A stretch of 64,000 bases of DNA. Origin: Botryllus schlosseri (taxonomy: Eukaryota). Shown here piece by piece: positions 8,670-64,000 of the stretch. Numbering within the stretch: position 1 is the first letter of the stretch; each line of letters opens with the position of its first letter. Both the position numbers and the translations under genes were made by a program. The stretch spans positions 24,926,001-24,990,000 of the forward strand of contig CM119372.1 in NCBI GenBank assembly GCA_051294905.1, read 5' to 3'. The notes under the pieces are model-generated. The model did no database searches. It was not told the DNA's origin and saw nothing but the letters and a program-made list of their open reading frames with translations.

Positions 8670-8676
8670 GTGCAAT

Positions 8677-11464: not shown

Positions 11465-11510
11465 GTAGCACCATAGCAATTTACAACGTTGTAAATTGCT
11501 ATGGTAGCAC
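11465..11510. mobile_element. P/Galileo-like transposon excision footprint (others at 47903-47937, 55188-55265, 63197-63235)
   Basis: gtagcac-CATAGCAATTTACAAC|GTTGTAAATTGCTATG-gtagcac: perfect 16+16 palindrome between 7-bp direct repeats. Confidence 0.7.
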
Positions 11511-12258
11511 ACGCTGATGACACCTGCTGTCCGCTGGGTCCGCAGTTTAGTGCAAGCTGCAATCCATTGGTTTGCTGCACTGAGCTGGCCAACCAACAAT
11601 AACAAAAAAGAACAGGCAAAGCAGTTGGACCGAGTGGCTGCAAGTCGTCCTTTTCATCCGTAGCCGAGCCGAGTAGAAGTGCGAAACGTCGGTGCTGCAT
11701 TTGAAAGATTTATTTCTCATTTGCAAGGTACGAACTCCAACCATACTCGTTTCCGGGGTATGTGGACTGGTATAGACGAGTTTCAGGTATGCATTACCAT
11801 TCATCTCTACGCTTCTGTTTTTAATTTCCTCGGTGAAAGAGGGTGGTAGAATATATCTACCACCAACATAATGGCACACATCAGTGAACGAATCCCATCA
11901 TGAACCATGACGACCATAAGAAACATTAAATATTTGAATATAAATTCTAAGAAATATATGAATTATCATGTACAGAAACTAACAAACTTTGACATTTTGA
12001 TTTGAAATAAAACATTGGATTTTGTGTGTGGACTTCTTATTGCAACACATGATGATTTTGATTGGAAATCTTATGTAATTTGTTGTGTTGTAGGAACTCG
12101 TATCCTACTGAGTAGTTAACTAACTACGTAACTCTCATTTCCATATACTGAGAACGCCAAACAAGTACAGATAGGACAATGCAGGAAAGCGCATGATCAT
12201 GTTATTTCGGACCCTTCCCTGATTCATGTATTGTTTTATTCAGGCATTTGCTGCTACT

Positions 12259-14120
12259 ATGCAGCGTAATCCGGACGACAGAGATTTGCATATCAAAGTC
12301 AAAAGAGCATGTAACGGCATCAATGAGACAATTCACATGATCGCAAATGATCCTTCACTCGGCATGTACAGAGTTCAGCAACACGTTAAGAAGTCACTTC
12401 CGAAAGTAGTAAACTCTGATAATGAATTAAAAGCATCAAACTCCCAACTACAGGTATTTTATCCAAGCTTTTGTTTTGACTTGGTTGATATTGTAAGAAA
12501 CTATTTTGCTGGATCTGATCATTTTATCATATTGTAGTGTTTAGTTGTTATTGCTGCTGCAGTAACCCAATCATGGATTTTTAAACGCTTCTGTTATGAA
12601 ACATTACAATGTGCCACGACGTAGATTTCTGACATTACTACATTAGTGTGATTTTAGATTTTGCTGGGCACTGCGAGAGTATAACTGTTTTTCCCGGTCT
12701 AACAAGTTTCTATGTTCATTGTTCATTGATGCAGCTAGTTTGGAGCAGAATGTGGGGTGAAGTGAAACTCACCCATGTTGAGTTGTTCAAACCAATATAA
12801 AAGCTACTAGTGGGATAGGAAAAAATTTTCTGTAGAACTTAATATATCATGTGTGCGTTTTGTCATTCAAAGACTGCACCTTGAAGATCCGCTTTGAAAC
12901 CAAACGTCCTCATTATAGGTGCAATTTGACAACTTGTAAGCTGCTAAACTGAGCAACTGCCAATAATTCGTCTTTACAATAATCAGATGTGGAAGATAAT
13001 GTGGAAATCGTATTTATTGAAGATTGCATTGTTGATTTTGGAAGCGTTGTGTGTCCTTGCATTAGTTCAAATTGATTAACTTCAGAAAATCTGTGCTCAC
13101 CCCATCCTGTTTCAGAATCAATGTAACCAACATCATCCATAATTTTTGCCAAAGTAGTAATGAAGATTGGTTAAATATATAATTTTATTAATGCTTCTGA
13201 TGCTAGTTGGTGTGGATGGTAATCAAATTCATATTTGTAACAAACATCTTTGTACGTAGGTCATCTTCTTGACAGTCTCCATTTCTACAGTCACGTTGAA
13301 ATGAAATATAATTTTCTGTTTTGATTATTTTCGATCTTGTGCTTTCCAAGTATTCTATGTTTTCCAAGTACACTATGGCGCAGCCCACGAAAAAATTCAA
13401 ATTGTTCCCTGGAGCTTTCAAGCTTTTCACCCCTGAATCAGCACTGCGAAACATATGTTTGTAAATATTGGTCCTAGAATAATTTATAAAGTTACTGGAG
13501 GATTTTCTTAACCTTCATTTGACACAAGTACTTGACGTGAATCTATGTATATTTTATTTATGGGGTTTATAATAATGCAGCAATCCTGAAGTAATGTTTG
13601 AGACATGCAATCAAATTAACATCTGATCTTTTTTACTAGCACACACCGTTTTCAAATTCACTGTTAAACTCCTGCAATCATCTCATATGCTTACTGGCAA
13701 AGATTGTCAAAGTAGTAACTGTTGTCGGAATTAGTAGTTCTGCTCAAGTACAAGTAGTGACTTTCTATATATGTTGACATTATGGCAGGTAGCAGGCTGC
13801 TAGTGACGAATAAATTTACCTGAGACGACTATGTAGCATACTTATTCCGTCATTTTCTGTGTAGTGTAACTGAGTAAGCATCTGTTCCCTAGATGCTTTG
13901 ATGATGTGTCGCGATTGTCACAAGCTATTTGCAGACCCAATTAATTAATTTAGATATCCATTTTTAGGGCCTGGTATATGATGCAAGCTATGCAGATGAG
14001 GCAATCCAGAGTATAAGGGACAGTATTGACTGCTTCACGAATATGGAGAAACTATTGCGTGAAGCTACATCAAATGCAGCTGTGATAAAGATGAAAAAAT
14101 CGTCTCCGCATGTTTTGTAG
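12259..14120 (+). CDS. BORCS8: BLOC-1-related complex subunit 8 (MEF2BNB)
   Basis: Exons 12259-12453 (MQRNPDD...MIANDPSLGMYRVQQHVKKSLPKV...QLQ|gt) and 13968-14120 (ag|GLVYDASYADEAIQSI...FTNMEKLLREA...*). Matches the BORCS8 pattern ANEPSxxLYRLQEHVRRSLP...GAIYxVEYA. Confidence 0.88.
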
Positions 14121-15324
14121 TATAGGCTAATTCACATCTCGATGTACTGCGTGTGCAATACCTTGACCTTCCTCCTTTTCCGCCGTATATTACTGTTCAG
14201 ATTTTGAAGTAAAAATATAGTTATTGCAAATGTGCATCGCTTCCAGGCAGAACCTAGCTTTTATTGTATTAAATATTGAATGGTAAAAGCCGAACCGGAC
14301 GACGTAATCCTAACTAAATTTAACCGACAGTCGCTGAGCGATGGCTTGCTACCCATTCTTCTAGTGATAGTGGGCGAACTTGAATAGCAAGGTCAAATTT
14401 CCGTTATCATAATGACGATCCCGTATATCAGCTCAGGGTCCTGGCTGATTTCTGAAGGATGCTATGCGATTCACTAATTTATTGATATGTGACGCGGAAG
14501 ATCAAGCTTGGTGATATTGTGTGCGCTTGCGGTAGCTGGCCGTGCGCTTTTGATAGCTTTCTAGTCGGCAAGATACATGTTCGTGACTAGCTCAGAATAA
14601 ATGATCGCGTAATGTTACATGATCAAAAGATTTGGTGCGCTAACTACGCAAGATACGAGGAAGCTAAAAGTTGCCAAGCAACATATAGCAAGACGAGCGG
14701 CGTTGAGAAGTATATTCATATTTGAATGAACCAAAATATTTCAGGCTGACAATCGTCAGAAACTATGAGAATTTTATGAACAATCGTATCACCAAATATG
14801 CGGTGTTGTGTTTATATCCATAAAATTCTTGAATGAATAAATGAATCTATTCTGAGGTTGTTACGCCAACATCCAACACAAAAGGATACCAATCGCTGCC
14901 TCCGTCCGGACAATAATATATAAAACGTCAAAATTATTAATTGGCAAATCCACCGCCATCGTCAGTAGGCCGTGCCGACGAGTTGGAGGCTCATCGCTGG
15001 GCTGTCCTTCCGGCGTCCTTACGAAAATCAAACTGTTCAGTGTTCACCTTATCCGCGTCAGCGGTGTCTCACAAAAAGCCTAGAGGTGGGCCATCGGCAG
15101 TTACGGAAAAATAAGAAGAATATCGGCCTGGTGTAAATGACCATAGAAGTCGACAAAATACCATGAATACCCCAAAACAAACAAACAAACTGTTCGTTAC
15201 ATCGCATGGCGCCTTGTGCTTCACATTGTGCCTTGACCAAAAAAGGAATAGGTCCGTAGCCGTTGATAATAGGTGAGACGTGATAAAAATCTCTTAATCG
15301 CAGGACGCGGTAGTGTGTAGTAAC

Positions 15325-21300: not shown

Positions 21301-24300
21301 GTAATTCAATGAGTAACGAGCACGGTTCTTATTTTCATGTTCTACGCTCAGGTGGTTTTCTGATTGTAAGACTATAGTCTACAGCAGTGATTCCCAACCG
21401 CGGCCCCCAGCTATCCTTGTTGCGGCCCCCACAAAAATATGGAGAAATCGATTTATGATATAAAATAAAATATATATTTTTTAATTAGGATTGCAGGAAA
21501 GTTGTGAGTAGAGTGCTAACGTTATGTCACTGGTGTTTCAATGCAATGTGCCCTAACTTTCTAGTTGAACGAGCAGTAGCTATAGATATAGGTATTGATA
21601 ACTAATCTATGGATAGATGTACAATTGTACAACACGGGACTCACGGTTGAATACGCCGAGATGCGTATACTGCTGAGCCGGCTAAAAGCAGCATAATCGG
21701 TAGTCCTATAGCTCGCGACCCAAGCGTCCGAATAAATTGATATGTAAGGTCTTTATTGAAAGCTAGTGCCGCTCTGATTCCGAAAATACGAATTCAAATC
21801 TGGCCAGGGCAATAAAACTACTCCGAAATAGCCGCCGAAGGTCGATGGTTCTGAACAATGGAAACGCGGCAACACAATGACCATAACAATGGCCAGTGGC
21901 GTCGAGCGATTGTTCGGAACTATGCAAATTTTCATATTTTAATGACTATTTTGGGTTCGTTTCATTGCCTTGGCCATATTTAAATTTGTATTTTCTGGAT
22001 CAGTGCGACTCTTGCTTTCGATTATGACAGTGGTTCCCAACCTTTTCCCACCCAACTATACCATTTCGAGATTTTATGCAGTGCTCGCGTACCACCTACA
22101 TGAGTTACGCGCGCCGAAGACGGTCAAAAATGTTTCCACCGTGTTGAGCTGCCGAAGGCGGCGAAACAGAAAATGAACTGCCCATTTTAAAGCGCAGTTT
22201 GGGATTTCTGTGATGGATCCATTTGGACTTTCTTGCAGTCAAATATATTAAAACAGAATTTGGTTAGGTAAGAATCCCAATGCTGTACGACTAGATCTCC
22301 TCCCCGTACGCCGTCATTGGTGGGATTACCGCTACCCACGACGACTTCAAAAAACTAAAAATCAAGCCCACCTGATTTAATAACAACCTTCGGTCGAGAA
22401 AAAAACATAATCTACTCGCGTACCACCAGGAAGACCTTCTCGCAGGCTACCACTAGTGGTACGCGTACCATAGGTTGGGAACCACTGGATAAAGACCGGA
22501 CATATTAGACATATTAAATATGGACGCTCGGATCGCCAGTTATAGGACAACCAATTATGCTGCTTTTACCGGGCTCAGCAGTAGGCCTCTCAGCGTTCAA
22601 ACCGTGTATCATGTGCTGCGCATCAATCTGTATGTTACAAATCTATGGTTAAGGCAAAACCCCGCAGCAGTTGTCCAGTTCTCCTCGATTTTACTCAATT
22701 TTGTGAACTTTTTATTGATCTAAAGCAGTCACAAATTCTATAAAGCTGCAATAGGTTAATCAGTCATTTGGTCAAGTTGGTAAGCGCTTTGATGCTTTAT
22801 AATAGGGTTACCATATTTAGGAAATCTGAAAAGAGGACACTTTTTCAAAATTTCAGACTTGAAAAACTGGTGAAAAATCCTAAAAAAATGGTAAATTTTC
22901 CCCACTTCGAGGTCGGTTGACTACAAAAAAGGTCAACTTTCTGGCTCAGCTATCGAAATACTCGCCGGAGCGTTACTTCAGTGGTGATTTACTCTATCTC
23001 AGTCGATTTTGCCCTATATTTAACCAGCAGTCTCGTAAAAGAGAACAAAATCTCAAAAAAGGACATTTGGGCGTCCTCCGAGGACACTTTAAAAAAAGTC
23101 AAAAAAGACGACAAACCCTCTTAAAGGAGGACGTATGGTAACCTTACTTTATAATTTTTGCTATACTTAATGAGTGTATTCGTGCGGCTCCCACCGTACT
23201 TTGAAATTCTAAATTTTGCCCTCACACCTAAAAAGGTTGGGAACCACTGGTCTACAAGGTCGTTTCGACATATTCCCATCTTTTCATTTTACCGCTATTT
23301 CGTGGTACTTTGGAATGATGAAAATATATTACTAACTATACTGAATTGAAAGAAAACTACAATGCGTTCGTGCCAATCAGCAGGGAACGTTCATGGAAAA
23401 TCTTTTAGTGAATAAATCAGCGATGTTTGCTGCGATATATGATGCATTTTTTATCAGCAATCAAGTATTGTCACAGATATACGCCACGGTGACTTGATCG
23501 CAAAAAGTTGAGGTTGAGAAGAGAGTGCCATTTTTTCAACCAACTGCCCGCCGTGCTGGTCGTTATACTCGTAAAGTCTACTACGAGAGAAAAATTAATG
23601 AAATGCGGTTTCAAAATAAGCTATTCATCTGTGCTCAACATCACTATTCCTCACTAAAGCTGAAACGGCTTCGACGATGGCAATTGGCAGCAGCATTCCA
23701 ACGAGGGAGAATCAGCTGATACGGGCAATGGCCCAGACACCGCTAAGGCCGAGACGCTTAGAAATGGGCTTATTACTTCCCTACGAAATCAAGATTTACG
23801 AGAGCTGTTTTTGTTGGAACTTTGCCCGTCGCCCATGTTAGAGAGCACAGCGTCGTACTGACTTAAAATATTTTAAAACGTGGTTGCTCAAAGTATGGCC
23901 TATTTTGTCTCGATATTGCATTCTTGCGGCCAGTGGCCTCTACGAAATTTGAAAAGTGGCCGTCGACCCGTTTTGAGTTGGCGAGCACTGCACTATGAGA
24001 ACATGAATTGACGTATTCGCAAATGCGGCGATGTCCGAATTTGCTCCAAACTACCCTAATGCTAGAAATCGGATACAATGCATAAACTCATGAGACACCT
24101 GTAGGTAGAATTCCAGTTTGCGATCAACTCTAAGTATTCCGTGTCTGCGTTTACCAATTGCATGATAACCCCTCGCAACGCAGGACCGCAAAATCATTTT
24201 GTAGCATTTTGCGTCTCTGGATGATCTATACTTCGAGCAGTACGACTATATTCAATATGCCTATTGCGTACTACACCTACCGTTCCAAGTAGAATTTTCA

Positions 24301-26392: not shown

Positions 26393-27296
26393 CGTTTTAT
26401 GCTAAGAAAAATCAGACAGCGTATTTGGTAATACGATTGCATGCGTAATGAGTACATTCCGAATGGATGATGCTGTAGCTTTGTAAGCTGTCTGCATAAA
26501 CTGTAACCTGACTGCCAGTACCGCGTAAACAAGAATTGCGTAACTCCATCGACTCCATCCAAAAACGCTTATCACTAGTGCGTTCGCGCTGGGCATAACA
26601 GCGCTTTATTGCGATTTGCGAGTGACAACGCCTGTGGTAGACGCGGCGTCCTTCAGCTCGATTTCAAAGTGATTTTGAGAGCAAACTAAACTTGTGCATT
26701 ATCATGATGATAGGACCACGATTTCGGTGCATACTGGTGAGGGCGTTTTTGTAATGACGTAATTTTTGAATTCGTGATTTTGATGCTTTTTTTTCGCGTT
26801 TTGTAATTGGCGTTAACGTTTGTAGGCTGTAGACTTGTGTGTTCAAACCATGATCACCAAACAGTACCGGTATCTAAATAAATGTTTATACGTTCAACTG
26901 TTGTATCTAAGTTACAATGTCTCTATGTGAATGATTTAGTAAGTACCATAGCCCAAGGTGCAGTATTAGGAAGGCCAACAAGCCCAACATACATCATAGA
27001 CATTTGCTGCAATGGCCTTGTAATTCATATCATTTAATGATTTTGATTGTATTGTACCTTTATATCCTTACGGTACTGCTTTTGACGAAAATACGCCTAT
27101 TTTCAGATGTATAGCATATAATTTGTTAGCGATACATGAAGCTAAGATTGCTCTTGAAACCTAGTTTCCACAGAAACTTTGTTGAAATAAATAAGATACG
27201 CGTGTGCTGGGATTCAATGCTATTGACCTTCTTTTTAACTACGGTATACCAGATGTAGGGTTTTTATCCATGTATTGACCATTTGACTATTCCAAA

Positions 27297-29378
27297 ATGG
27301 CAGCCAAAGGTATGAAAGGGCTACTGGCATGGTGCAAAAAGAACACCGAAGGTTATAGAGATGTAAATGTTACGAACATGTCCTCTTCATGGAAAGATGG
27401 ATTAGCCTTCTGTGCTTTGCTGCATAAATTTCACCCCGAACTGATAGACTTCGACTCGCTCTCCAAAGAAAATGTGCTATACAATAATCAGTTGGCATTT
27501 GGAATTGCAGAGGACCTTGGCATTGCCGCATTCCTTGATGCAGAAGACATGGTAAATATGAAAACGCCAGACAAATTAAGTGTTATGACTTATTTGTCTC
27601 AGTATTATAACTGCTTCAAAGATAGCAAGCCTGGGGAACATGATGCCAACCAAACTGTTGTCAACCCAGTGAATAACCCAAAAACTCTCGATTCCCCAAA
27701 GAAGGCAAACGATGTAAGTCTTTGCACGATTTGTGGCAAAAAAGTACACCTCGTCCAGAGATATTTCGAAGATGGAAAGCTCTACCATAGGACTTGTCAT
27801 CGCACTAGCTCTCTAGATAATATCAGGGGCAAAAATTATTTCATTAAACAGACAAAGGATAGAACAAACGACTCTCAAAGTGTAACTCTACCTAAGGTGA
27901 AGGGGGGAAATGAAGCTGCACCAACGTCCACACCTGGTGATCAAAATGAAATGTCCGTAACTACAAGCAGTGGCGATGCTGGGATTGATAGAGTTGACAC
28001 AAGGCATGAGGACTCTGATAAAGACGATCAAGCATCCTCCAATGGTACAAATGACAATACTTTTAAACCTCTTCCCAAACCGCGAGTCAGAACACTGCCG
28101 CCGAATACCAATGCTGCTACAGATACTGTTATGCAGTCAAGTTCTAATGGTGCTTCAAAGCCCGTTTCTGATGACGATCACAATGATGATCTCAACCCGT
28201 TCGGTTCAGATTCTGATAGTCAAGAAACTTTATTATCAACATCATCTGAAGATGACACAAATCCTTTTGCCTCTACGACAGAATCGAAGAGTGGAAGTCA
28301 GAAGACAGGGCAACAGCAGTCAGAGTCGGAAAACGAAGGCAATCCTTTTGGTGATGATGACATCGATGAAGTGGCGGATGAAGGTTTTGGAAATCCATTT
28401 GGAGACTGTGACAAAGAGGAAAAAATTGAAACTTCTCAGCTGAAGCCGAAACAACCGGAACGCTTCAACCCATTTGCCAAAGACATCAGCGAAGAGCCTG
28501 TTGTCGAAAGCAAGAAAATTCCTAAGAAAGCCCCTCCGCGACCTGTAAATACACCTGCAGTCAAAGCACCCCCAAAGAGTCGTAAGAAGGCACCTGCACC
28601 ACCTCCGCCAACATGGAAGCTTGATTCCACTCAGAAAATGGTTGAAATGAACAGGGCCAATGAAAGAAACGAGAAATTCCCACAGAAGAAAACAGTGGAA
28701 CAAAAACCAATGTCGCCACGCAAGCCATCAACGAAAATGGATCGATTTAAGTTGCGAAGATTGTCGACTCCGAAAACACGAGCGGCACCGGGTTACGGAC
28801 ATCCATTGGTAAAACGAAAAGTACATATCGCAATGACCGAAGACGAAATAACAACAGAATTGAAACTGATTGATATCAAATTGACTGACTACGAGACCAA
28901 GGGTGTGAAGCTGGAAGAAATGCTAAGATTTGCCATGAATAAAGATGTGGAATGGACAAACGAGGAGGATGAGCTTCTTAACGAGTGGTTTGATCTTGTC
29001 AATAAAAAGAATATTCTGCTAAGAGACGAGTCCGATCTCGTGTTTCAACTTCAACAGCAAAGATTAGAGCAAGAACACGCCGACATCGAATTTGAGCTGA
29101 GAAAACTTCTGAACAAACCAGACTCTGCGAAAACCGAAGAGGATAAAAAGAAAGAGGAGGAATTACTGCTGAAGCTCGTGGAGGTTGTGGAGAGAAGAAA
29201 TGTAATCATAAACTCCATAGAAGAGGAACGACTGAAAGAAGCGGAGGAGGATTCAATGTACGAACAAATGAAATGGATGAAGGAGAATCCAGGTAAAAAG
29301 AAGAAAAAGAACAAAGTAAAGAAAATGTTCAGCAAGAAGGACAAAAAGAAGGAAAAGAAAGTCAAAGACAATCAATGA
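27297..29378 (+). CDS. MICALL: MICAL-like protein (CH domain, partial LIM, NPF motifs, Pro-rich region, C-terminal bMERB coiled coil); intronless CDS
   Basis: 693-aa ORF: LLAWCK..TEGYRDVNVTNMSSSWKDGLAFCALLH (CH), CTICGKKVHLVQRY..DGKLYHRTC (LIM start), five NPF motifs, WFDLVNKKNILLR...LEQEHADIEFELR (bMERB). Confidence 0.9.
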   Translation: MAAKGMKGLLAWCKKNTEGYRDVNVTNMSSSWKDGLAFCALLHKFHPELIDFDSLSKENVLYNNQLAFGIAEDLGIAAFLDAEDMVNMKTPDKLSVMTYLSQYYNCFKDSKPGEHDANQTVVNPVNNPKTLDSPKKANDVSLCTICGKKVHLVQRYFEDGKLYHRTCHRTSSLDNIRGKNYFIKQTKDRTNDSQSVTLPKVKGGNEAAPTSTPGDQNEMSVTTSSGDAGIDRVDTRHEDSDKDDQASSNGTNDNTFKPLPKPRVRTLPPNTNAATDTVMQSSSNGASKPVSDDDHNDDLNPFGSDSDSQETLLSTSSEDDTNPFASTTESKSGSQKTGQQQSESENEGNPFGDDDIDEVADEGFGNPFGDCDKEEKIETSQLKPKQPERFNPFAKDISEEPVVESKKIPKKAPPRPVNTPAVKAPPKSRKKAPAPPPPTWKLDSTQKMVEMNRANERNEKFPQKKTVEQKPMSPRKPSTKMDRFKLRRLSTPKTRAAPGYGHPLVKRKVHIAMTEDEITTELKLIDIKLTDYETKGVKLEEMLRFAMNKDVEWTNEEDELLNEWFDLVNKKNILLRDESDLVFQLQQQRLEQEHADIEFELRKLLNKPDSAKTEEDKKKEEELLLKLVEVVERRNVIINSIEEERLKEAEEDSMYEQMKWMKENPGKKKKKNKVKKMFSKKDKKKEKKVKDNQ

Positions 29379-30567
29379 TCCATATATCTACGTCAAGCAT
29401 GCAGCTGCACTTCGATACCTATTAACACAGTTTAGTATTGAGAAAAGTTGTCATTATAGATGGGGTAAAAAACCGTAGCATTATCGTAAGACAGTTCCTG
29501 TAATGTGCTGGTTCATATTGCAGTGCAACTGTCAACACAAAAATATTCATTGCACTTGATATACTTCGAATTTCCAAGCCTGGGCCTGTAGGACGTTGTT
29601 AATTAGTAGGCTATATATTGTATAGCATACTAATGGTGACCTGAACTAATCATTTGTGGGTAATACAGCCCGTACGAGATATGTAGTAACAACATGCTCC
29701 AATTAGCTAACTTGCAATTAATGTTATTTATTGATTTTGCAACGTCTTGTGTGATTTTGAATGTTGGTGTTTCAGAAATCTTGATGTACAATTTTCTGCC
29801 ATGCAATAGCCATCTCTACACCCTGTCTGCTTTTAACTGGAATTGTTTGTTCTACATATTTTATATCCAGGATTTGGACATGGATATCAGTGAAGAATAA
29901 TTATAGAGCAAGGAAATCAAAGAGCCTACACACCACAGCAAAAGTAGTAATCCAGTGCAATTTCATGAATGAGCAGTCATTATTTGAAGATTTCAATTGT
30001 GTTGCGATATATCTTTGCCGTCATGCTTACCTATATAACAATGCATTCTTTTGTTGCTGATACATCACTTTTAAATGCTTATACTAATATAATCCATTGC
30101 GAATATATGCCACATTTGAATTGGATTTACACCTATTGGAGATAGGATGTAGGTACCTGATGCAACCTACATAATTTGATGATTTAGAGCCAATAGTATA
30201 GATCTGATTACATCGAAGCAGCAAGGCATCTTTCACAGGATTTATTACATCGAAGCAGCAAGGCAGACATCAAATGTAATATACTGGTGAGGATCAGGTC
30301 AGAACACCTCTATAGATGGCAGTGTACTGCGGCAAAGTATTTGTGATCAAATAAGTAGCAAATACTTCTTCACATATCAATGACCCCATCTGTTGTTCTT
30401 GCCAGCATGTTTTGAACTGGTCAGCTGTCATATGCCTTGAACGGCTGGGCATTATCAGCATTCTTTTTTTATAACGAAGAGTTTACGAAAGTGAAAATTT
30501 TTACAATTCCACATTGTCGCATTCCATATCCGGATGATCTAATCTGACTCCAACCACGGGTCGCGCA

Positions 30568-31377: not shown

Positions 31378-31378
31378 G

Positions 31379-46400: not shown

Positions 46401-48426
46401 CTACACCAGAGGTTCTTAACCCTGCCTCCAGCGCCTCGTAAGGGGCACTGGCGATATTGAAGGGGACGGAAACGCTCAGGGGTCGCTGAAGAAAAATGGC
46501 TTCGCAGTAGATGATGTGGTAGTAGGACATATATTGAGTATTCAGAGCAAATTAACATTCCACAAAACATGTCAAATCCCGAAATGTTTGGTCGCGCTAC
46601 GCGATGATGTTGGGTGTTTCCATAAATGTAGTGGGTTATTATCAGTGGTGGCTTTTGGGGTGGGCGAGGTGGGCGGTCGCCCGCCCCCCCCCCCCCCCCC
46701 ACTGGTCGAAGGGGCCCCCTTTTTGGTTTTAGCGCTTTTTTCAAGGGTTTGTAGCGGGAAGACGCGGAAATCCTTGTACCAATCAAGAAAATGATTGCGT
46801 TCAGATGAGTAAAAAGTCCCATATCACGAGAATCATCAAGTCTTTGCAAGTTTGCTTGTCTTTCAAGTTGGTGGGCGAAAGGGGGGTCTGGGCGGCGAAG
46901 CCCCCCAGAAGCTGCGATTATATATACTTATAGCCCCCCCGGAAGTCTCGCCCAGGGCCCCCCTAATCGTAGGGCCACCACTGGTTATTATTATTCATGT
47001 AAAACGAATTGCGCGTACTTTTAGATCGCTAATATGTTCCGCGACCCAGATCAAAATTTGACGAGCTGATTACTAAAAGAAGTCAGCACCTTTGCCCAGA
47101 CTTACTCACGGGCTATTTTGGAAGCTGATTACGTTCAACATATTCGTGAACCCCAGAATAAAGGCCAACGACCCCCCCCCCCCCTATTTGGAACCTTTGG
47201 AAATCTGTGAATAAAGCATTTAAGAGGCCTTAACGATCTCTAGGAATATACCGTACCGTTCTCCTATAATTGCGATTACAATTGGGCTTATTCCAGTAAA
47301 GAAGAAGAATAATAAGAAAGAAAAATATCGTGCATCAGCATAAATATTCCCCCCAAAATATTGTTTTTATGCTGATTTACGAAAAATTCCGGACGTATGG
47401 CAACCCTAACCTACGACGTACCGATCAAGAAGCTGAAGTTTCCCCATTACGCTATCTTGTGGTCTTGTCGGTATAGTCCTTCGTTACGGAGATTCATCTG
47501 ATAATATGAACATTTCACGACGTGCAGTTTAAATCGTAGAAGTGCCAAAACTTTTACCAGGTATTTTGAATAAGCGGTCGTCGGTAGAGGTTTTTGCACA
47601 CCCCGGTGTAAAACATTGCGTCGCCTTGCTGACGCAACCAGCTATGAGAAGAGTACGACATATCAAGCCAGGTCGATGTGAACAATACTAACTATGGAGT
47701 GATTATCCTTAATGTAATTCTAGAGCAGGGTTCTTCAACCGGGTGTATCGTACACCCCAGGGTGTATCATGATTTTTGAAGGGAGTACCACTCAGATGTA
47801 CTGTACAGGGGTGTACCAGATCCGCATTTAATGAGCCGATGACAAGTTATCACAAGAAATACGCCACTTTACGCTTCAAAACAGGTTGACCGGATGTGCA
47901 ACGTCGTACTATAGAGTAGCCTACTCTATAGTCGTACAATGTTCATATATTAACTGTATGCAGCTGTAAGTTACATTCCTTTTCTGGCGCATAAGTCAAT
48001 GTTTCTCCTCATGAATTAACCTTTTGGTAATGAGCTTATTGGTTCCTTTTGAAGTAGAACGACGTGGAGTTAACATGTGTTCAGCTCGCAATATATGTCT
48101 ATGATGATCCTCAAGAAAACCACCACGGTAGCGCAGACATTTGAATTGGTCCTTCTTGCGGCACGTTTATATATAGCGCAGTGTACAATTGCATGGGCGT
48201 AGCCAGGCGGTCTCGAGGGTCGAGTTTGAGAACCACTGAGTTAGGTGGTCGTCTGATAACCTCAACCCGTGATTAGTATTTAGAATTTCCTGTACGTTGC
48301 AGCCTCATTATCATTTCCAATCGGCTGCAGCCTTACTAGAGTTCAATTAACCCAGGGGTGCCTAACCTGCGGACTACGGCCGCATGTGGCCGCGTAAGAC
48401 CTTGTATCATTCGGCCGTCTACACAC

Positions 48427-51400
48427 CGAGGCTTTGGAGCCGGAGCTGGAGCCCGGAGCCCCGGAGCCGTGCATTTTGCTGGAGCCGGAGCTCTACATGA
48501 AATTCAGCCGGATCCGGAGCTGGAGCTAGTTATTTGAGGGGTAAGGATATTTCGAGCGTGAATAGGGGATGGCAGAAGAGTAGCCCAAAACGCCGTTACA
48601 CTCAGCGAACAATTGTCGCGGTGCGAGCTACTCTACTCAATGCGATGTCCGGACCCCGTGGTATTTTATGTTGGAGAGAAATTACTGATTTGATACGCGA
48701 TTTCCAATTTGTAATCATCTGTTTCGTAAATTCAATCTTGATGTCTGCTTGATACTCTAGCATTCCCGGATTATCGCGCACTGTGACTTGTAAATGTGCA
48801 ATGTGCGTACTGCATAGTTTAATTCGTTACGGGCAATGGGCATGGCCCAATGTGCATGGCACAGTGTTTAATTCGATTATTCGATTTGTTTCAACGGGAA
48901 GATATTATATTCCCATAAACTTGGTCGACACCGGATGGACTGGTAACGAGTGCACCAATATCGAACATCAAATCATTGGCCATTTGGTACAAATCGAATT
49001 TCTATTGATCAGAGATGTCCGCCCATATTGCTCTTACTACAGTTACAGTTGAATAATAATCGCTTATTTAAAGATTGAATTGAGCTGTATGGCTTAATGT
49101 TAACGAGTGCAGTGCCAGTGATAAAACGCCGCATCAGAATGTCATACGGTGCACAGCAATGACATTGAGTAAAGTGCGTTCTAGTGCGACTATATGATGT
49201 AATCGACAAGTATTCATTGCGACGTCACAAGCCGACACGGCGGCACCTATGCCTTCGTTGCTGCATCCGATGTCACTCTCTTGATTACTCTAGATCAGTG
49301 GTTCTCAACCGCCGGTCCGCGACGACATTCCTGCCGGTCCGCCAGGTATATTACAATTTTATACTATAATTTCAAAATTGAATGTTGAAGGCTTGTCTAA
49401 TGTCCATTGATAAAATAAATAAAACATCAAATTTTAAACTGATTCATAACTTCGTGAGGTAACATTAGGGCTAGGAAAATGTTCGATTTGACTTAAAGGT
49501 CAAGACGTGTCATTTGACGACATGCGAGCGGCAAGTACTGAACAGACACGAGCTGACTCATCGCTAAACAGCGCAGTTTTTGCGTGATCATTCGTTTTCC
49601 ATTCATTCAATTCGTGCAGGACCGTAACTGGGGCACCCCAAACCGCCCAATTGGAGAGGAGCCGAGCTTGAAAAGGGCCCCAAATTATTTTGCAAATGAG
49701 CATAAATCATAGCATATTTTTTTGAAACTTTCCCCAACATTTTTCAATTTCTTTTCGCGCATTACGCGATTTAGTGTCTCTAAATGTCTTGCTTATTAAG
49801 TGCCCGTATCCGAGAAATACGCATGATTCATAGAAATAGGCATTTCGGCGCCAGCCATCACCACGCCACGACGTACCAACACATAACGAAGTCTAAGTTA
49901 ACATGGGACTCCGAAAGGGGTGCCAAAAATTTGGCCGCGAGAAAACCGATTCAGTCATGACTGATCAATAATTTTCGCTATTGGCGCGATTAAGCTATGC
50001 ATAAACTTTCTGCTTATACTGAGTAGAGTGAATGTGCTCACAAGTACAGGTGAAAACATCCACTCAACTGTAAGTTCTGGGGGCGAAGCCCCCGGAAGGT
50101 TGGCTTATCGCCCTGTGGGGGCCCAAGACCGACGTTTTTGGGGTGGGCTGACGAAGTGCTTTTTCGGTACGGATTTGCGGAAGGCCGGTGTAGCTGCTGT
50201 AAGGTGTTTTCTTGCGGCACGCATTGTATATGTAGTTGCCAGAGTATAGCCTGAGTCTGGTGGCAGCGGGCAATGAGCAAGGTAGCACGACAAGGTGATT
50301 GGTTCGACGGGGGCCGTAACAGCACTTCGCCAGCCCCACTAAAACGTTGGTCTTGGGCCCCCTATATGATGAGAAACCGAACTTCCCCAGAACCCTCCTC
50401 AGGCTGTTCGCTTTTTCCACGAAATCAGTCGTACTGTTTAGTGAGCCAGCGCAAAAATTTTCGATAATTCATGATCAAATCTGTCAATAAAATCGGGAAT
50501 TGCATATATATTGCTATCAATTTCTTGTCCTCTCTGCTCATGTAATCAGATTTGCCGGTAGAGCTGAGTGAGGTGTCCTGGAAACTGATGTAGGGCATGT
50601 TGGTATGACTCCGTAACATGATGTTATTTCGTGATCTCCTCTCTGCTATATCAAAACATATAGAATCGCCCAAACGTAGGCCACTAAGCTGAAAGACGCA
50701 CACGATTTCAGATTGGTATTTCTTCACTGGTATATCAGTGTTGGGATCAAGTCACTACCTTCGAGTCACGAGTCATTTCGAGTCATTGCATATTTGGACT
50801 CGAGTCAAGTCAAGTCAATCGATTTTCGAAGGTGACTCGAGTCAAGTCAAGTCACTCGATTTTTGGAAGTGACTCGAGTCAAGTCAAGTCACGAGTCAAG
50901 TCACATTTCAAGTCAAGTTGCCTTTTCGAAGTATGAGGCATGCCTACGCCATTGCATTTTGCTAGCAGTCCGAAACACAGATTCACTGGTCATTGATTTT
51001 GAACCGATGAACGAATATGAAGTTGAATATACACTTAAGACGGCGCCGTATCGCTTACATAAAACGTAGAAATGCTAAACTACGCAAGTATAATTGCATA
51101 GCCTCAGTTTATAGTTTCCAGCCAAAATAGAGAATAGAGAAACGAATTATTGATAAGAAGCAATTTACTACCCATTTACAAATGGATATGATACAATTCG
51201 AGCCTGCGCCAATGGTCGAGGACTATATAAACTATCTTCGAATTTAATTTCAATAAAACAAGACGTTTGGTTCAGGTACGGAGAACAGTAATAGACATTT
51301 TTCTATTAAAATACTTTACTATACTAGTTTACGACAGCGTAAGCTGTAAGCTTCGATCACTTCGTAAGCGGTCAATTTATTTGTGAGAGAACAATGGAGG

Positions 51401-53295
51401 CTCATCAGTAAAACGCACGATCATTGAATAATTGGTCGATCTCACGGGTTACACAAGCGTTTCGCGAGCAATTCGATTGCAAGATACAGTGATTTTTATC
51501 GACATCGATTACTTGATGACTTGAAATTGACTCGTGAATTTTGCTTCGAGTCACGAGTCAATCCACATTTCTGATACGCCGAGTCAAGTCAAGTCAAGTC
51601 ATTTTCACAAAGTGACTCGAGTCAAGTCAAGTCATACGAAAAAGGTGACTCGAGTCTGACTCGAGTCAAGTCATGACTCGAGTCATCCCAACACTGTGGC
51701 ATATAAGTTTTACCTGCGGGAGAGTATTTGTCTTGTGAGGTTCAGATTGCCAAGACAGGAACATTCGTATCCATTCATTTAGGCGCCTATGGACAATTAA
51801 ACCTATATGTATTTTGTATATATAACGAAGTTTTGGGTGAGCATAAGGGTAGTCGTTTTCGGCCAAGGTTTTCTCGCTGCCGATAGTTCTGGCACACTTC
51901 TTGTTGTCGCATGTTACATGCCCTAAAACTTTAAATGTCTTGGTGCATCGTGGCGCGGTAATGGCCAACGCCGATATGCTCATTTTTATAAATCTTGTGT
52001 ATTTTTTCTTGGGGGAAGAGTACCCAAAAAGAAAGATATCTGGCAACTTGAAATCGCGTGGTGCGCGAAAAATTTATGAAAAAGTTGCATAAATTTTAAA
52101 AAACTCTATAATTTATGCTAATTCACGAAATAATTTTGCGCCTCTTTCGAGCTCTCCCCGCCTCAATTGAGGGTTTGGGGAGCGGCAGTTACGGTCCTGG
52201 GTTCGACTCCGATACGCTTCTTCTCTCGATATTGTCAAAGATAAGAATATTATTCGAGTTGGCGTGGTCGATAAACCACGGCATTCGGCGCGAAAGACTG
52301 TAAACGACTCTCGGCGGTAGCACTTTACCTGGAAAAGGCAATCTTACTTCGACTCATCAGACTCACTACCATAAAATCACATGAATGTTATCATGAATAT
52401 AATTAAATACGATCAAAACCCTTTAAATGTCACTCTCTTGCACCATATAATTGCAAAAACCGGTTGCATAATTTACATTTTGGCTTCATTTCAATTTTGA
52501 AAGTTCACCGGTCCGCGAGACATTTTTTAAAATTTGACCGGTCCGCGAGGTGAAAAAGGTTGAGAACCACTGCTCTAGATAACTAACCTACGGGTAAATT
52601 AGTAATCTATATAGACCAGGGGTGGCCAACCTTTTCCGCTAATATACGACAATCATTTTATCCCTACATTTCATCGTCGACGATCTTTCTGCGAGCGCAA
52701 ACGCGAAAAGACTTTCTCTCGTAATTACGAATATAGTTGGACTCAATCGGCAAAATAAGGCGTTTTTTCATTATCAGGAGGGGGTAGGCTACAAAGCAAG
52801 AAATCGTGTGACAATTAAACACGTGAAGCGCGAAGAAAAATTTTACTACTCTTTTAGTTTATTGTAATGTACGACGATTTACTAAAAATGTGACTGGACC
52901 CTGGATCTGCCGTGCGTCGGAACTGCTATTTTAGTCATCAACATCCCGAGTGTCGCTGCCAGACTAATCATATTTTTGGTTGGCCTTGCAAGTTCACAAT
53001 CTGAGCAATTCAATTTCGATAATATCACAGGATTTCGATAATATAATGGGAAATTAGCTCGTGCATGGGCTACTCAAAACCTTCTCGCGGGCCACAGATG
53101 GCCCGCAGGCCGCGGGTTGCCCACCCCTGATATAGACAGACACCTTCGATCGTTTTCAGAGCCGGAGCCGGAGCTGGAGCCGGAGCAGTGGTAATAATGC
53201 GGCTCCGGAGCTGGAGCTGGAGCTACTGTATGATAGAAGAAAGCTCCGGAGCCGGAGCTGGAGCAATGCAAATTTACGGCTGCTCCAAAGCCCTG
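48427..53295. mobile_element. Nested stack of hAT-type MITEs
   Basis: Outer GGAGCC-repeat element (TSD ctacacac/ctacccac) > 49296-52572 (TSD ctctagat) > 49617-52199 > 50736-51696 (TSD tggtatat/tggcatat). A sibling lies at 52617-53129 (TSD atatagac). Confidence 0.8.
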
Positions 53296-53539
53296 CTACC
53301 CACAGTCAAATTAGCGTGTGTTGGCGGCCATCAAGATGCAATTTGAATTTACGAATTTGTTCCCAAATCTTTCAGGGATTGCAATCCCATTATCTTCGCG
53401 CTTTGCGCGAACCGGAAGATATGCATATCATCATTAATTTTGAACCCAAATTTTTCGAAGATACCCTCCATCAGTTCTAAAGGTTAATCTGATCACGTGT
53501 ACTGAGAATAGATGAAAAATTGACACTAGTATGTGAAAC

Positions 53540-54951
53540 CATAGTGTCCTATATGGTGTCGACACAGCAAATCTCACGGTTCAATGAAATTGTATCACGT
53601 CACAATTTCCATTTGGCTACAGGCAATTTGACGGTCATTTTTGACCGGCTTGCCGAGCAATAAATTTGATGAATCGGGTATCAATCGAAAGCTAACTCTG
53701 CACTGATTACGAAAAAAAAAAATTATTCCAGTCATGGCCCTGGAACCCCCGCAATCAGCCCCAAATTACTCATTGTTGAGTAGATTGGCAGTGTGACGCA
53801 ACAATGCTGTCTGGTGAAACGAGAGAGAAACTCAAGAGCAAGGATGCGGTCGAGCGGCGAGAGTGAGATCAGCTGACGTCGCGGCAATAGCTATGTGCAA
53901 TTATAGATAACTATCCTAGCTATACTTAGACGGAAGGACCTCCATAAGTTGAAGGATATTGCAGAGAAATTCGTAGGTCCCAAATACATTCTGTGGACCT
54001 AGTTCTACCTTTACAAATCAAGGAAAGGCAGGTAATGTGTGCTCGCTTTTAGCGAAGCGCCTATAGAAAGTATCAACAGCGCCACGCATCTCTGGAGCCA
54101 TACGCAACAACCGGGCTAAGGTAATCGATATCATAATAATCTGACATATCCCATGTAGACTACTTAGACGTAGCCTACATATCTCTTTCAGCTGAAGGAT
54201 ATTGCGCGAAAATTGGTAGGGACCAAATACATTCTGTGGACCCAGTTCTACCCTTACAAATCAAGGAAAGGCTGGTAACGTGTGCTCGCTTTTAGCGAAG
54301 CGCCTATAGAAAGTATCAACAGCGCCACGCGTCTCTGGAGCCCTACGCAACTAGCGGGCTGAGGCAATCGATATCATAATAATGTGACATATCCAATGTA
54401 GACAATTTAGACGTAGGCTAAATATCTCTATCAGTTGAAGGATAATGCGCGAAAATTGGTAGGGCCCTAATACATTCTGAGGACCCAGTTCTACCCTTAA
54501 AAGTCAAGGAAAGGCTGATAAGGCGTGCTCGCTTGTACCGAAGCAAATAGAAAAAGTATCAACAGCGCAGCGTTTCTCTGCGACGCGATTGCACATAGCT
54601 ATTGCCGCGACGTCAGCTGATCCCACTCTCGCCGCTCGGCCGCATCCTTGCTCTTGAGTTTCTCTCTCGTTTCACCAGACAGCATTGTTGCGTCACACTG
54701 CCAATCTACTCAACAATGAATAATTTGGGGCTGATTGTGGGAGTTCCAGGGCCATGAGTGGAATTAAATTTATATTTTCGTAATCAGTGCAGAGTCAGCT
54801 TTCGATTGATACCCGATTCATCAAATTTATTGCTCGACAAGCCGGTCAAAGATAACCGTCAAATTGCCTGTAGCCAAATGGAAATTGTGACGTGATACAA
54901 TTTCATTCAACCGTGAGATTTGCTTGTGTCGACACCATATAGGACACTATG
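53540..54951. mobile_element. P-superfamily (Galileo-like) non-autonomous element with ~360-bp TIRs and an internal 243-bp tandem repeat
   Basis: Termini CATAGTGTCCTATATGG...CCATATAGGACACTATG. 7-bp TSD gtgaaac at 53533-53539 and 54952-54958. Internal repeat registers at 53951, 54194, 54437. Confidence 0.8.
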
Positions 54952-55566
54952 GTGAAACTACCAACATCATCGGCGAAATTCATTCAAGGGGCTCAGCAAA
55001 ATTTTCGCGTTCCGCGTGACTAGAAGACTATTCCCAGTAACATTTCCTGACATGTAGCGGCTACTCGTCATTTTGGGGCATATAATATATTTATTGATCA
55101 TTTGCTATCATCATTTAATTTTTCTTCCATTTTCCTTTTTTAACTAAACATTTTTCACAGCCAGACTGTTCAGTGTCAAGTGTACCTGTTTGATTATAGA
55201 CAATGTATATATATCATTGATTATAGATTACTAACCTACCGTAGGTTAGTAATCTCTAGTTTGATGCTGGAGTGATCAGACTAGATGACCTTCACGGTTT
55301 TATCGATCATTCCTATCTAATACCGAATACTGTGCATGCATATTTTCTGTACCACCATCACAGCCGTTTGTTATGTATTTTGGTTGGATGAAAATAAAGA
55401 CTCTCTCTCTCTCTCTCACAAAAACTTGCCCTACTATTCAATGAAAATTTTGCTAGTCGAGTTGACTAGCTCAGCTGTGAGTCACGTGTTTCGCATGCAT
55501 CTCATTCACAACAAAAGGCGGCGGTGAGGTGATTGGCAATTTCGCATATGAGCGGGCGCTGCTGGA

Positions 55567-56955
55567 ATGAATATAGATATTAGCCAAGAAAAAGTTATAA
55601 GATACCATTTGAAGAGTTTACTTCGAATGGTAACGCAGTATCAAGATTTCTTAGACTCCTTCATTATAGAATTTTTCATTGAAGATCACTGGAAAAAAGT
55701 GCCCGAAGGATGGAGAAAGATATTCGAAAATATGGAACCAAGCGAATTCAGTGACCAGATCTTTGAGGAACATCCCCAGAACGGCTATACCGATGTTCTG
55801 CCACTTTCCCTGCTTGCGTTCAAAACATGTTGTTCATCTTTTGGAGTATCCAGACATTACAATACTGCCATTGATATTGGAGAATTTAATTTAATTCCTT
55901 GCCAAAGTAAAATGATCGATCACATTTTCAGAAAACATGTTAAACCAAAAAAGCAGCATGAAATTAGAAAATTGGGTGAAGTGATAAGGAAAGAAATGAA
56001 TTTTTCAGAAATAACGAGGGTTGTGGATGTTGGTGCTGGTCATGGGCATCTATCACGTCTGCTAGCTGTTGGTTATGATATACCAGTATCTTCATTTGAA
56101 CTGAATGCTGACAGTGTGATACGAGCAAAAGAAATGGATGATGAGTGTATCAAGTGCATCTATAAAAAGAACCCACATGGTCCCAAAGTAGTGCCGTCTC
56201 ATACAGCCAAGTTTATCGAGCCATTTTTAACGTCCCGTGAGTTTCTGGATTTGTTCGGAGACCTTGTACCGGCAGAAAAAATTTTACTAACTGGTCTTCA
56301 TGCATGTGGGGATTTAAGTGCAACTATGTTACATACATTTGTGAATTGCAAAGAAGTACAATCTCTTGTTTCAATATCTTGTTGCTATATGAAGTTATCA
56401 ACTTGTGGCGATTTCACCGAGAAAAGTTGTTTCTATGGATATCCAATGAGTTCATATGTTCGATCCATCCCATGCTATCACTTGAGTTACAAAAGCAGAG
56501 CAACTGCTTGTCATGCGAATGAAAACTTCGCAAAAAACCTCCGTACAAATGGCGATCAATTGCGGGTGCACTGTTGCCGTTCTGTTTTAGAATCATTAAT
56601 TAGAAAATCGCGCCCCGAAATGGTAAGACCTGGTGTCCAAATTTCTCAAAAAATACAGTTATTTGACTTTGAAAAATATGTCAAAATCGCATTTGAAAAG
56701 ATTGGTATGTCAGATCATTTGTCTGATGACGTCAACGGCGAAGAGGTGAAGTCTATGTTGTCACAGTGGAAGAAAGTGATCATGTATTATTCGCTTAGTT
56801 TATTACTAGCACCTTTGGTAGAAACCGTGATTTTACTCGATAGAGGAATTTATTTATTAGAGAATGGGTTTCCATCTCGCGTGGAGTGTATTTTTGATCC
56901 GTCACTCTCTCCAAGGTGTTTTGCGTTGATTGCGAATAAAAATTCTGACAAGTAG
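55567..56955 (+). CDS. METTL25B: Methyltransferase-like 25B (RRNAD1); intronless, 462 aa
   Basis: FRKHVKPKKQHEIRKLG, VVDVGAGHGHLSR (SAM motif I), LTGLHACGDLS, SCCYMKL, GYPMS, LAPLVETVILLDR, IFDPSLSPR. Confidence 0.92.
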   Translation: MNIDISQEKVIRYHLKSLLRMVTQYQDFLDSFIIEFFIEDHWKKVPEGWRKIFENMEPSEFSDQIFEEHPQNGYTDVLPLSLLAFKTCCSSFGVSRHYNTAIDIGEFNLIPCQSKMIDHIFRKHVKPKKQHEIRKLGEVIRKEMNFSEITRVVDVGAGHGHLSRLLAVGYDIPVSSFELNADSVIRAKEMDDECIKCIYKKNPHGPKVVPSHTAKFIEPFLTSREFLDLFGDLVPAEKILLTGLHACGDLSATMLHTFVNCKEVQSLVSISCCYMKLSTCGDFTEKSCFYGYPMSSYVRSIPCYHLSYKSRATACHANENFAKNLRTNGDQLRVHCCRSVLESLIRKSRPEMVRPGVQISQKIQLFDFEKYVKIAFEKIGMSDHLSDDVNGEEVKSMLSQWKKVIMYYSLSLLLAPLVETVILLDRGIYLLENGFPSRVECIFDPSLSPRCFALIANKNSDK

Positions 56956-60887: not shown

Positions 60888-61914
60888 TCAAGAAGGGTAT
60901 TCTTCCGTTACCCATTCTTCTGTATGCTGATGCACCGTAACCTCATTCGCAAGGGTCGGTACATCCTCCGCACTGACTGTAAATCAACAAGAGTGAATTA
61001 TAAGTTTGTGTGCTAGCGGACCTGCGGTACCGCAGTTACCTGTTAAGATTTGGTGCCCCTCTCTTATGAGTGGGATTTCCGTCGAAGTTTCGACCTCTAT
61101 GATGTCGCCGTTGATGGCGTTCTGCGTCACTCGGAATTGCACGGCTGTAGAAAAGAGCAGATAGTTGGAGGTTATATGATTTCAAAGTATGGAGTAGACT
61201 CGCTCCCAAGGCTATTTATGATTGAAATTCCGTAATTTCTGGTGCCGGGAAGTTTCAAGTACAGCCTGCACTGTGTTGTGAGGTTTGCCAACAAACCCAA
61301 TATCAAAAGGCGGCGTGATTCAACTAGGACTTATAATGTGCACTGTGCAGCTTTAGATTAAAGTTACCAGTTGCCTGAATATTCATAAGTACCACCAACC
61401 TTTTCAGAGTACCTGGGTAGATTTTGTCTTGTGTTACTTCGTCAAGTGACTTGTTTTTTTACATTTGCAAAACGATTTCGAAAGTAGAATATAGGTTTGG
61501 GATTGGTTTGTGTTACATTAGCAATCAACTTGTCCAAATAGACCATGTATGAGTTTTCTTTACTTGAGTAGCGATTCCGGCTACTTTAACCACCTGCGGT
61601 CAATTCTGTCGGGGCATTCCTCATGCAGGATACGTACACCTCGGCACTAACCCTCACCTGGTTGGAAAGTATGCATCCCAGGCAGTGTCTGAACCGGGCT
61701 TTCCGCTCCCTGATTTCCATTCGCTGCTGTAACCCGGCTGAATGTCGACATGGGTGGAACTGAGGCTGATCTCGATACGTCCGGTATCGGGCCCGGAGTA
61801 TGATCTGAAAATGTCCAAAACACGGTACAGTGGATGTCCCTCGGAGTTGTTGCGAATATCAGCAATAAGCATACCTGTTAACGTATCGACTGTGACTGCA
61901 TTTCCGGAAATCGT
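60888..61914 (-). CDS. 3' exons of an unidentified gene (5' part unresolved or outside window)
   Basis: Four phase-consistent GT-AG exons 61914-61875, 61804-61658, 61144-61040, 60976-60888. They encode TISGNAVTVDTLT-DHTPGPIPDV...HTFQP-AVQFRVTQNAINGDIIEVETSTEIPLIREGHQILT-VSAEDVPTLANEVTVHQHTEEWVTEEYPS*. Confidence 0.65.
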
Positions 61915-64000
61915 CTGAAAATAGTGCAAAAGCTTTGTGTGAAGTCATGGAATAATGTTTGAGCGCTGTGTAATTGTGTATCACAGAGGTGTAACAATAG
62001 GGTTACCATATTTTGGTAATCTGAAAAGAGGACACTCTTTCCAATTTTTAGACTTACAACGCTGGAGTAAAATCCTGAAAAAATGCCAAATTTTTCCTGG
62101 CATTGTGGTCGGTTGACTAAAAAATGAAAAAAAAAGGTCATTTTTCTGGCTCAAGTACCAATAACCATGTCGGACCGTTACTTGGCTGCTGAATTCCTGT
62201 AACTCATTCCAATTTCCATGTGCATTTAAATAAAAAAGAGGACATATGGTAACCCTATGTAACAAAGTACTTCTCCTTTTTCAGAGTAGTCCAGTAGGTT
62301 TTGCCTAATTGCACTACTTCTACGCAATAGCTATTCTTACTCAACAGCTACAACTATGGTGAGTGAAATTGAACATAACAACTGGGCGCAGGGTTTTAAC
62401 CAAGTCACAAGGTTCCGAGTCACAACTCAATCTGACTTTTACAGTTTTGACTTGAGTCAAGTCGAGTCATTTTCAATTCACCACCGAGTCCAGTCCAAGT
62501 CAGTGAGAAGAGGGTCGAGTTCAAGTCATTGTGTGCAGTGCACTGTTCAGTTTTGTGTTCAATCCAGTGCAAAGCACTTTTTTCAACTCTGCTCGAGTGA
62601 TATAGAATGGCTCACCTTCATAGTATAGTAATTATCACCAGTCCTGACAGTTTCTGGCCCTATTTTCCAAGTATCAGGACTGACAGACGAAATACCAATA
62701 ATGTGGTAACTTCGAAGTCCTCGTCTCGAGTCACATGACTTGGGTACATGACTCAAGTAGAGTCATTTTACACATTTGGAAAAATGACTCAAGTCGAGTC
62801 ACCAAAAAATCATGACTCGCGTCATTACAACCATGACTGAGCGACTGCTACTGAGCACTGACCAGAGTACTTTTTGAACCTAGATTTTTAAAATTTCACT
62901 CAAAGCAGTTTTGATGTACCACGGCAGTGCTTTTCAACCTGTGTGACGGTTTGCACGTGTGCGAATGAAAATCCGGATCAAGTGCGAATGAAAATCGTGA
63001 TTATTAATTGTTAACTTTTCTGACGTGGAATAATTCAAATAAACCTAATAGGAAATTTAAGATCAGTGTAGCTAACTTTTGTAGTTGCGGCGCAATTGTA
63101 AAAACTTAATACGACACGCTCTCACAAGCCGTAGTGACTTAATATTTCCGCACTCTAATTATTACGTAACCAAAGGCCTGGTTTGAAGCTGGTCTAGTGG
63201 CAGTATAGAGATCTCTACAATCTCTATAGTGGCAGACATGCAGTATATCAGCCTGTCTGAGCCTGCGGATGCTGGATGGCCAAACCTTTCTAGATGGATT
63301 GGATATGCTCCGTTGTCTTCACGGAATAGTCCCGTTCTTGCAATCTTAGTAGACAGTAGTACAACAACTGCGATACGCAGAGGAATTTAATTCGCCCTGA
63401 TTTGAAATCGCGTGCGTCAAACATGTTTTGTAGAGCTGTGTTGGATAGAATTGTGGTGTTCGCGTTCTGTATGTCATACATGCCCGTAAAATCGTAGCAT
63501 ACAACTGTAATATTAAAAATAAATTCCTTTTCATGGGTGGGGCTCGGGTCGCGAGATGTCACAAAAACTCAGATTTTGGGGGTTGTCTAAAAGCTGCTTT
63601 ACCGTTATTAAACTGTCATGAATTCTCAAGCTAGATTGAGCTAAAGAGTAGAACACACAGTATCGTGAGTGTATTTGCTCTTCTTATAAACTTGCGAGAC
63701 AGAAGTTGGAGCAACGTATCATCAGGTAGCGAGCTCTAATGTACCTACTCTCCTTGATCGTTTCGTACTTTATGTTCTAAAGAAATAAAGAAAAAGCCTC
63801 AACACAATCATGTGGGTTTTTCATCCTATCGACAAACTGGAGCCTCGTGTCAGCTCTCAAATACGATTTCTGCCAGCAAGCAATTTTCACTCGCGAAAAA
63901 TACGCTTTATTTTGGATAGGAGTGCAGAACAGATTTCAAGACCTGGCCATCCAAGCACTAGTAGACGTTTTTGTACAAATACCCATCAACATTGATTGGC

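Follow-up and report, generated by a model that had tools for sequence, protein, structure and literature searches.

Short palindromes between 7-bp duplications in Botryllus schlosseri as probable excision scars of P-type transposons

Results

Short hairpins and their target duplications

The 64-kb stretch of Botryllus schlosseri contig CM119372.1 analysed here (positions 24,926,001 to 24,990,000; hereafter the window) is animal DNA rich in genes, and the spaces between these hold many nested miniature transposons. It also contains five short hairpins with cores of 21, 25, 32, 37 and 38 nucleotides (nt), and four of the five retain both copies of a 7-base-pair (bp) target sequence. We consider that these hairpins are probably end-joining scars of excised P-type cut-and-paste transposons with YATAG...CTATR ends, and they are numbered below as scars. 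An earlier note, made from the sequence alone, had listed four micro-hairpins with 7-bp duplications, and all four are present; scar 5 lies beyond that list. The analysis draws on the window, on contigs from public sequencing runs aligned to part of it, and on the literature.

11465-11510, unstranded: scar 1, GTAGCAC at 11465-11471 and 11504-11510 with a 32-nt perfect palindrome (11472-11503) between them.
47903-47937, unstranded: scar 2, copies of GTCGTAC flanking a 21-nt core with 10-nt arms and a 1-nt centre.
55188-55265, unstranded: scar 3 (family A), copies of GTTTGAT flanking a compound 64-nt core.
63197-63235, unstranded: scar 4, copies of GTGGCAG flanking a 25-nt core with 9-nt arms and 7 nt of filler.
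52574-52611, unstranded: scar 5 (family A), a 38-nt hairpin with a hAT-type miniature element in each end.

The compound core of scar 3 begins with 27 nt of short arm and filler (55195-55221), followed by a 37-nt hairpin (55222-55258) that has a single mismatch at its right end. The filler at 55188 and at 63197 is locally templated. An 11-nt word across the left junction of scar 3 (55190) reappears as a direct repeat at 55217, which occurred in 2 of 2000 shuffles, and the filler of scar 4 is mostly a fold-back copy of its arm, forming a 12-nt fold-back palindrome. Scar 4 is surrounded by multi-copy DNA, downstream of a hAT-like end at about 62926. The two hAT-type insertions in scar 5 carry 8-bp duplications of their own (49288/52573 and 52609/53130). 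Within 49288-53137, the TAGA-containing scar ends resemble the 8-bp targets of these two elements, and scars may attract later insertions. A weak hairpin with 14-bp arms at 29602-29634 has no flanking duplication.

The pattern is not equally frequent in shuffled sequence. A regular expression of the form it proposed matches three sites in the window (11465, 47903 and 63197) and none in 100 block-wise dinucleotide shuffles; it misses the compound site at 55188. A scan that ignored the letters of the target and required 5-bp arms, with 10-80 nt between the copies of a 7-bp duplication, gives 14 matches in the window against a shuffle mean of 0.56, and the 11 further matches have arms of 5-6 nt (one of 10) and lie mostly within an AGTCA-type tandem repeat. 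With 9-bp perfect arms and a 7-bp duplication, only scars 1, 2 and 4 are left in the window, and a non-animal control, viral and metagenome loci totalling 495,083 bases, contains no match to the same pattern. A relaxed scan of the window, allowing up to two mismatches over duplication and termini, yielded no additional scars.

The duplications are exactly 7 bp at six sites, and all six targets fit GT-n3-A-n, hairpins and long elements alike. This agrees with the earlier reading of the motif, including GTGAAAC and GTGCAAT, the targets of the long elements described below. Three of the six end in C and so give the full GTnnnAC; the Galileo motif GTANTAC is exact in none. The probability of a shared motif by chance is about 1e-6 for the four target-blind finds, with a motif that was defined after the fact.

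The hairpins are real and not chance. Given the empty shuffles, the empty control, the insert-free paralog of scar 3 described below and the coverage of the scar 3 centre in four of four public runs, a chance pattern or an assembly artefact is practically out of the question.

An empty site and the public runs

Scar 3 lies in a repeat that has a second copy in the window.

33191-33197, plus strand: empty site in a paralog of the scar 3 host repeat, with one GTTTGAT and no insert.

The flanks of this paralog and of scar 3 are 88% alike over 106 bp and 97% alike over 157 bp. The empty paralog is housed in an element at 32653-34176 with inverted ends of about 110 bp and an interior of CCCTAA-rich tandem units. 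In all four public runs, one contig each joins 55187 directly to 55259, skipping 71 nt, namely the core and one target copy (64+7). Since the paralog is empty, the scars are insertions with 7-bp target duplications, as the earlier note had supposed; at scars 1, 2 and 4, the duplication itself is the sole evidence of insertion. We considered the joint at scar 3 as an allele polymorphism and dropped this, since the contigs may derive from paralogs such as that at 33191.

The depth at the centre of scar 3 reaches 5,093 in run X1, where single-copy bins have about 8-19, and 38,108 in run X7, where they have about 90; these depths are no copy numbers. The scar 3 hairpin is clearly repeated and variable at its centre. 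The centre is 1 nt shorter in at least 8+7 contigs of X1 and at least 8+6 contigs of X7, counted in 12 of 73 indel rows. The family A centres thus have 37 and 38 nt in the window, plus the 1-nt-shorter variant in the public runs, and this is the variation that independent repair events would give.

Long elements with the same ends

Two families of long elements occur in the window, together with a short junction that may combine two breaks.

43643-43888, plus strand: family A long-element end, after GTCAAAC; it begins with the hairpin arm and runs on.
21593-22647, unstranded: old family A element of about 1.05 kb, both ends aligning with the hairpin arm, flanks 4/7 alike.
53540-54951 (with duplications 53533-54958), unstranded: non-autonomous family B foldback, inverted arms of about 362 bp that are 95.6% alike, target GTGAAAC.
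8417-8669 (with GTGCAAT 8410-8676), unstranded: one-armed family B copy, about 250 nt of one end and about 4 nt of the other.
53902-53924, plus strand: hybrid-scar candidate, a family A-like 17-18-nt end and a 5-nt opposite end, with differing flanks.

The longer elements with ends at 43643, 21593 and 22647 have the family A hairpin arm as their outermost bases. The earlier expectation of longer elements with the same termini is thereby confirmed for family A (43643 and 21593-22647), the only family for which the stubs are demonstrated as element ends. These family A elements are non-coding. The other (right) end of the element at 43643 was not found in the window, and the element at 21593-22647 contains a nested hAT-type miniature element at about 22029-22490. 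The family A ends align with both family B copies, 53540-54951 and 8417-8669 (profile E-values 1.6e-10 to 1.3e-7). A 5'-CA start, and with it a 3'-terminal G, is the general rule for terminal inverted repeats in the P superfamily. It is found in family B, in scar 1 and at the 22647 end; scars 2-5, 43643 and 21593 start with TATAG instead.

The interior of the foldback (53947-54580) consists of about 2.6 tandem units of 243 bp that are 81-88% alike, and one of these units includes 18 nt that resemble the family A arm (54413-54430). The hybrid-scar candidate lies at the very point where the left foldback arm ends and has two different target-like flanks. It may join two separate breaks and could mark how the foldback gained its interior. 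The one-armed copy at 8417-8669 would fit a gap repair that was broken off and completed by end joining, which is the most frequent outcome in wild-type flies (PMC2895639).

Long inverted arms such as these could offer another route to short palindromes. Transposase-independent collapse would delete paired long arms (a hairpin or cruciform) by slippage or nuclease action and leave the tips with both targets, on the model of the nearly precise excision of Tn10. The family B arms of 362 bp, the long family A ends related to them and the retention of both duplications are consistent with this route, which also sets no bound of 17 nt. All five hairpins have stubs of at most 20 nt. For the element at 53540-54951, collapse at direct repeats between the arms would shorten both stubs to this range for only 6 of 591 pairs of 4 nt and for none of 255 pairs with 5-8 nt. 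This test is a proxy, in that family B is not the parent of the hairpins. Slippage also leaves the templated filler unexplained, and we regard collapse as an unlikely source of the scars.

The heptamer CACGGTT, at a guess a transposase binding site, lies 35-50 nt inside five of the six long ends, with a variant in the sixth, and is absent from the hairpins. This bears on whether the hairpins could be minimal mobile units, that is, miniature elements of 20-40 bp moved in trans and making a new 7-bp duplication each time. The plainly repeated scar 3 hairpin, with its depths in X1 and X7 and one centre variant shared by several contigs, is what such units would produce. However, the five cores have five lengths and two contain templated filler, and Drosophila P requires internal transposase binding sites beyond its 31-bp repeat (PMC7776569). 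A favoured microhomology also yields one dominant product in P repair (PMC2895639). Mobility of the hairpins themselves is thus improbable, and we return to excision scars as the preferred reading.

Arm lengths and the staggered cut

The long staggered cut of 17 nt is the hallmark of P transposase, which the literature found gives only for the Drosophila enzyme (PMC7776569). It leaves two non-complementary 17-nt 3' tails at the P donor site (bioRxiv 10.1101/2022.05.24.493293; PMC10983969). The earlier note had predicted that the arms would be capped at about this length. In family A, this prediction fails: both hairpins agree with the parent ends as far as base 18 on one arm and base 20 on the other and no further, a comparison that comprises two hairpins and three diverged parent ends. 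The junction overlaps in these two hairpins are 1 and 0, and the variant with the shorter centre fits 19+19 with a 2-nt overlap, where the missing base is inferred from its row position. If the family A bases past 17 were random filler, such agreement would have a probability of 0.003 by a lenient count. Scars 1, 2 and 4 are compatible with tails of 17 nt or less; scar 1 has a length that a pair of tails of 17 to 20 nt would give if joined via self-complementary tips.

The family A ceiling looks like 20 nt, which we treat as a lead and not as a result. Short repair synthesis can lengthen the tails (PMC2895639), and a few added bases on 17-nt tails would give an equal picture. It is possible, although we hold it only tentatively, that the P-type transposases of this animal with 7-bp targets cut about 20 nt inside the ends instead of 17 and accept ends that start with T. 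If this is true, the many natural scars in the genome would let the cut geometry be read family by family, with no need for biochemistry. The interest of the scars rests on this chance that they record a different cut geometry.

Excision by a P-type transposase

The proposed course of events begins with DNA transposons with YATAG...CTATR ends, which inserted at GT-n3-A-n and duplicated 7 bp, a step that we count as shown. A P-type transposase would then excise them via a long staggered cut, leaving on each flank a 3' single-stranded tail of the outermost element bases; both steps are modelled on Drosophila P biochemistry. The C-terminal domain of the Drosophila P transposase holds the single-stranded end. 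Since the two tails would be identical and not complementary, they would be joined by end joining, and the junctions point to a 1-2-nt self-complementary tip, a blunt join or a locally templated fill-in. Loop-out and snap-back, i.e. synthesis-dependent end joining, gives templated filler of the kind seen in scars 3 and 4 (PMC2943611). The product would be a short palindrome between both target copies, without the subterminal sequence found in the long elements. The family A tail would probably have measured about 20 nt, or else 17 nt with a few bases added by repair synthesis. The scar itself is probably an immobile by-product without function.

By analogy of their anatomy, the scars work like P excision, and membership of the P superfamily is probable, judged from the length and motif of the target, the long inverted ends and the type of scar. 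The earlier proposal of P-type excision footprints thus holds for the anatomy, which is that of Drosophila P junctions, and for the 7-bp GTnnnAC-like target, and it falls short on the 17-nt ceiling in family A.

Several observations weigh against this interpretation. The window contains only non-autonomous copies: of 159 open frames of at least 72 amino acids, 148 were scanned with Pfam (the 11 left out overlap host genes), and neither a P transposase nor a THAP domain was detected; a motif scan of the window for P transposase was negative too. A window search found no parent for scars 1, 2 and 4 (11465, 47903 and 63197), three of the five hairpins. The public runs were compared over a stretch with scars 3 and 4, and their output was dominated by repeats; in a subset of it (14 joints out of 974, 24 loose ends out of 5,053), no site was found with the long element in one state and the scar in the other. 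In scar 5, no 7-bp duplication is recognisable even after removal of both hAT-type insertions. The depth at scar 3 could be increased by spread of its host repeat. Four of the five hairpins start with T, so that their 3' end is A, and in Drosophila P the 3'-terminal G contacts the GTP cofactor (PMC7776569). To these are added the family A arms longer than 17 nt and the existence of hAT families with 7-bp duplications in Repbase (PMC4455052).

The last two points, together with the lack of an enzyme in the window, would also suit the same scar mechanism driven by a non-P transposase that likewise cuts far inside its termini. TA..TA termini resembling those of the hairpins are known from IS3EU/GingerRoot (PMC10045372). 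The 7-bp duplications in the window nevertheless do not fit the lengths of 6 bp for IS3EU/GingerRoot, 9-10 bp for AcademH and 3-4 bp for AcademX (PMC10045372). We therefore see little probability in a non-P enzyme of these groups; for hAT elements, the scar sequence itself argues against it.

Excision of hAT elements leaves palindromes derived from the flanks, and the scars in the window are palindromes of element ends. We continue to favour P-type excision.

Function and occurrence elsewhere

The scars look inert as sequence features, and nothing in the analysis points to the regulatory role that the earlier note had suggested. The only effect to be seen is at scar 5, in which two hAT-type elements landed. 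An Rfam search gave no matches at the gathering score. RNA folding predicts stable hairpins (z -2.6 to -7.8), as any palindrome would, and this is no evidence of function. In JGI metagenomes, the family A motif occurs 12 times; neither the second arm nor the parent continuation follows in any of these cases, and we judged them to be chance. Viral contigs and GTDB genomes gave no match to the family B end, and viral contigs gave none to the family A hairpin. As a control, the loose scar pattern was found at 120 loci in viral contigs, none with a 7-bp duplication.

Other features of the window

Pfam domains in the window include CH and bMERB (MICAL-like), Methyltransf_32, RsfS, Pescadillo_N, BORCS8 and Pcc1, and a Rieske/oxidoreductase gene is also present. 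Two frames are uninterrupted, 27279-29378 (MICAL-like, 699 amino acids) and 55552-56955 (methyltransferase, 467 amino acids), in contrast to neighbouring genes split into many exons. A remnant of a hAT transposase C-terminal dimerisation domain lies at 4474-4758 (Pfam E 1.1e-6).

Discussion

If the scars are P-type, a census would tell whether all members of the superfamily share one stagger, and by what means breaks of this kind are mended in an animal germline. It would also count past excisions that repeat annotation probably overlooks. In the literature searched, which covered few subscription journals, no paper was found that treats natural P-type scars as a class across a genome, or that describes P elements of ascidians.

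The nearly precise excision of Tn10 likewise leaves a short palindrome of the element tips between both target copies. That remnant is bacterial, independent of transposase and fixed by internal repeats, whereas the scars in the window vary in their junctions and two contain filler.

Within the P superfamily, duplications of 7 or 8 bp occur, and 7 bp with a GT..AC-type target characterises Galileo and 1360 (also PMC5199201). Anopheles P elements and their miniature derivatives have 8-bp duplications (PMC1562414). For 1360/Hoppel, a 7-bp duplication was found in 274 of 279 natural insertions, together with a palindromic target motif (PMC3276498, PMC3698922). The elements of the window resemble 1360/Hoppel by description in these two respects. 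The terminal repeats of 1360/Hoppel are short.

Galileo is a foldback-like member of the P superfamily with the 7-bp palindromic target GTANTAC (PMC4168063, PMC2775673), and excision footprints of Galileo were not found in the searched parts of these two papers. The window elements share with Galileo a 7-bp target of palindromic type, long terminal inverted repeats and non-autonomous copies with rearranged arms. Their targets fit only GT-n3-A-n, unlike those of Galileo, and the likeness is one of description, without sequence comparison.

The closest parallel is Drosophila P, whose excision junctions contain both target copies and stubs of both ends (PMC2895639). In the consulted part of that study, 68 junctions from Rad51-mutant flies are described; many retain almost nothing of the element and others have templated inserts, and the commonest joins with short microhomology are palindromes of 30 bp (14 isolates) and 32 bp (5 isolates; PMC2895639 Table 1). 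The scars in the window agree with these junctions in retaining both targets around a short palindrome made from the stubs of both ends, in their microhomology, blunt or templated joins and in products of about 30-32 bp and shorter. Drosophila P makes 8-bp duplications and 17-nt tails, and its junctions come from laboratory crosses (PMC2895639); here, the duplications are 7 bp, the setting is a natural germline, the family A arms extend to 20 nt and ends may start with T. The mechanism is already known from the fly; what the window adds is its natural traces in a new host and possibly a twist on the cut geometry.

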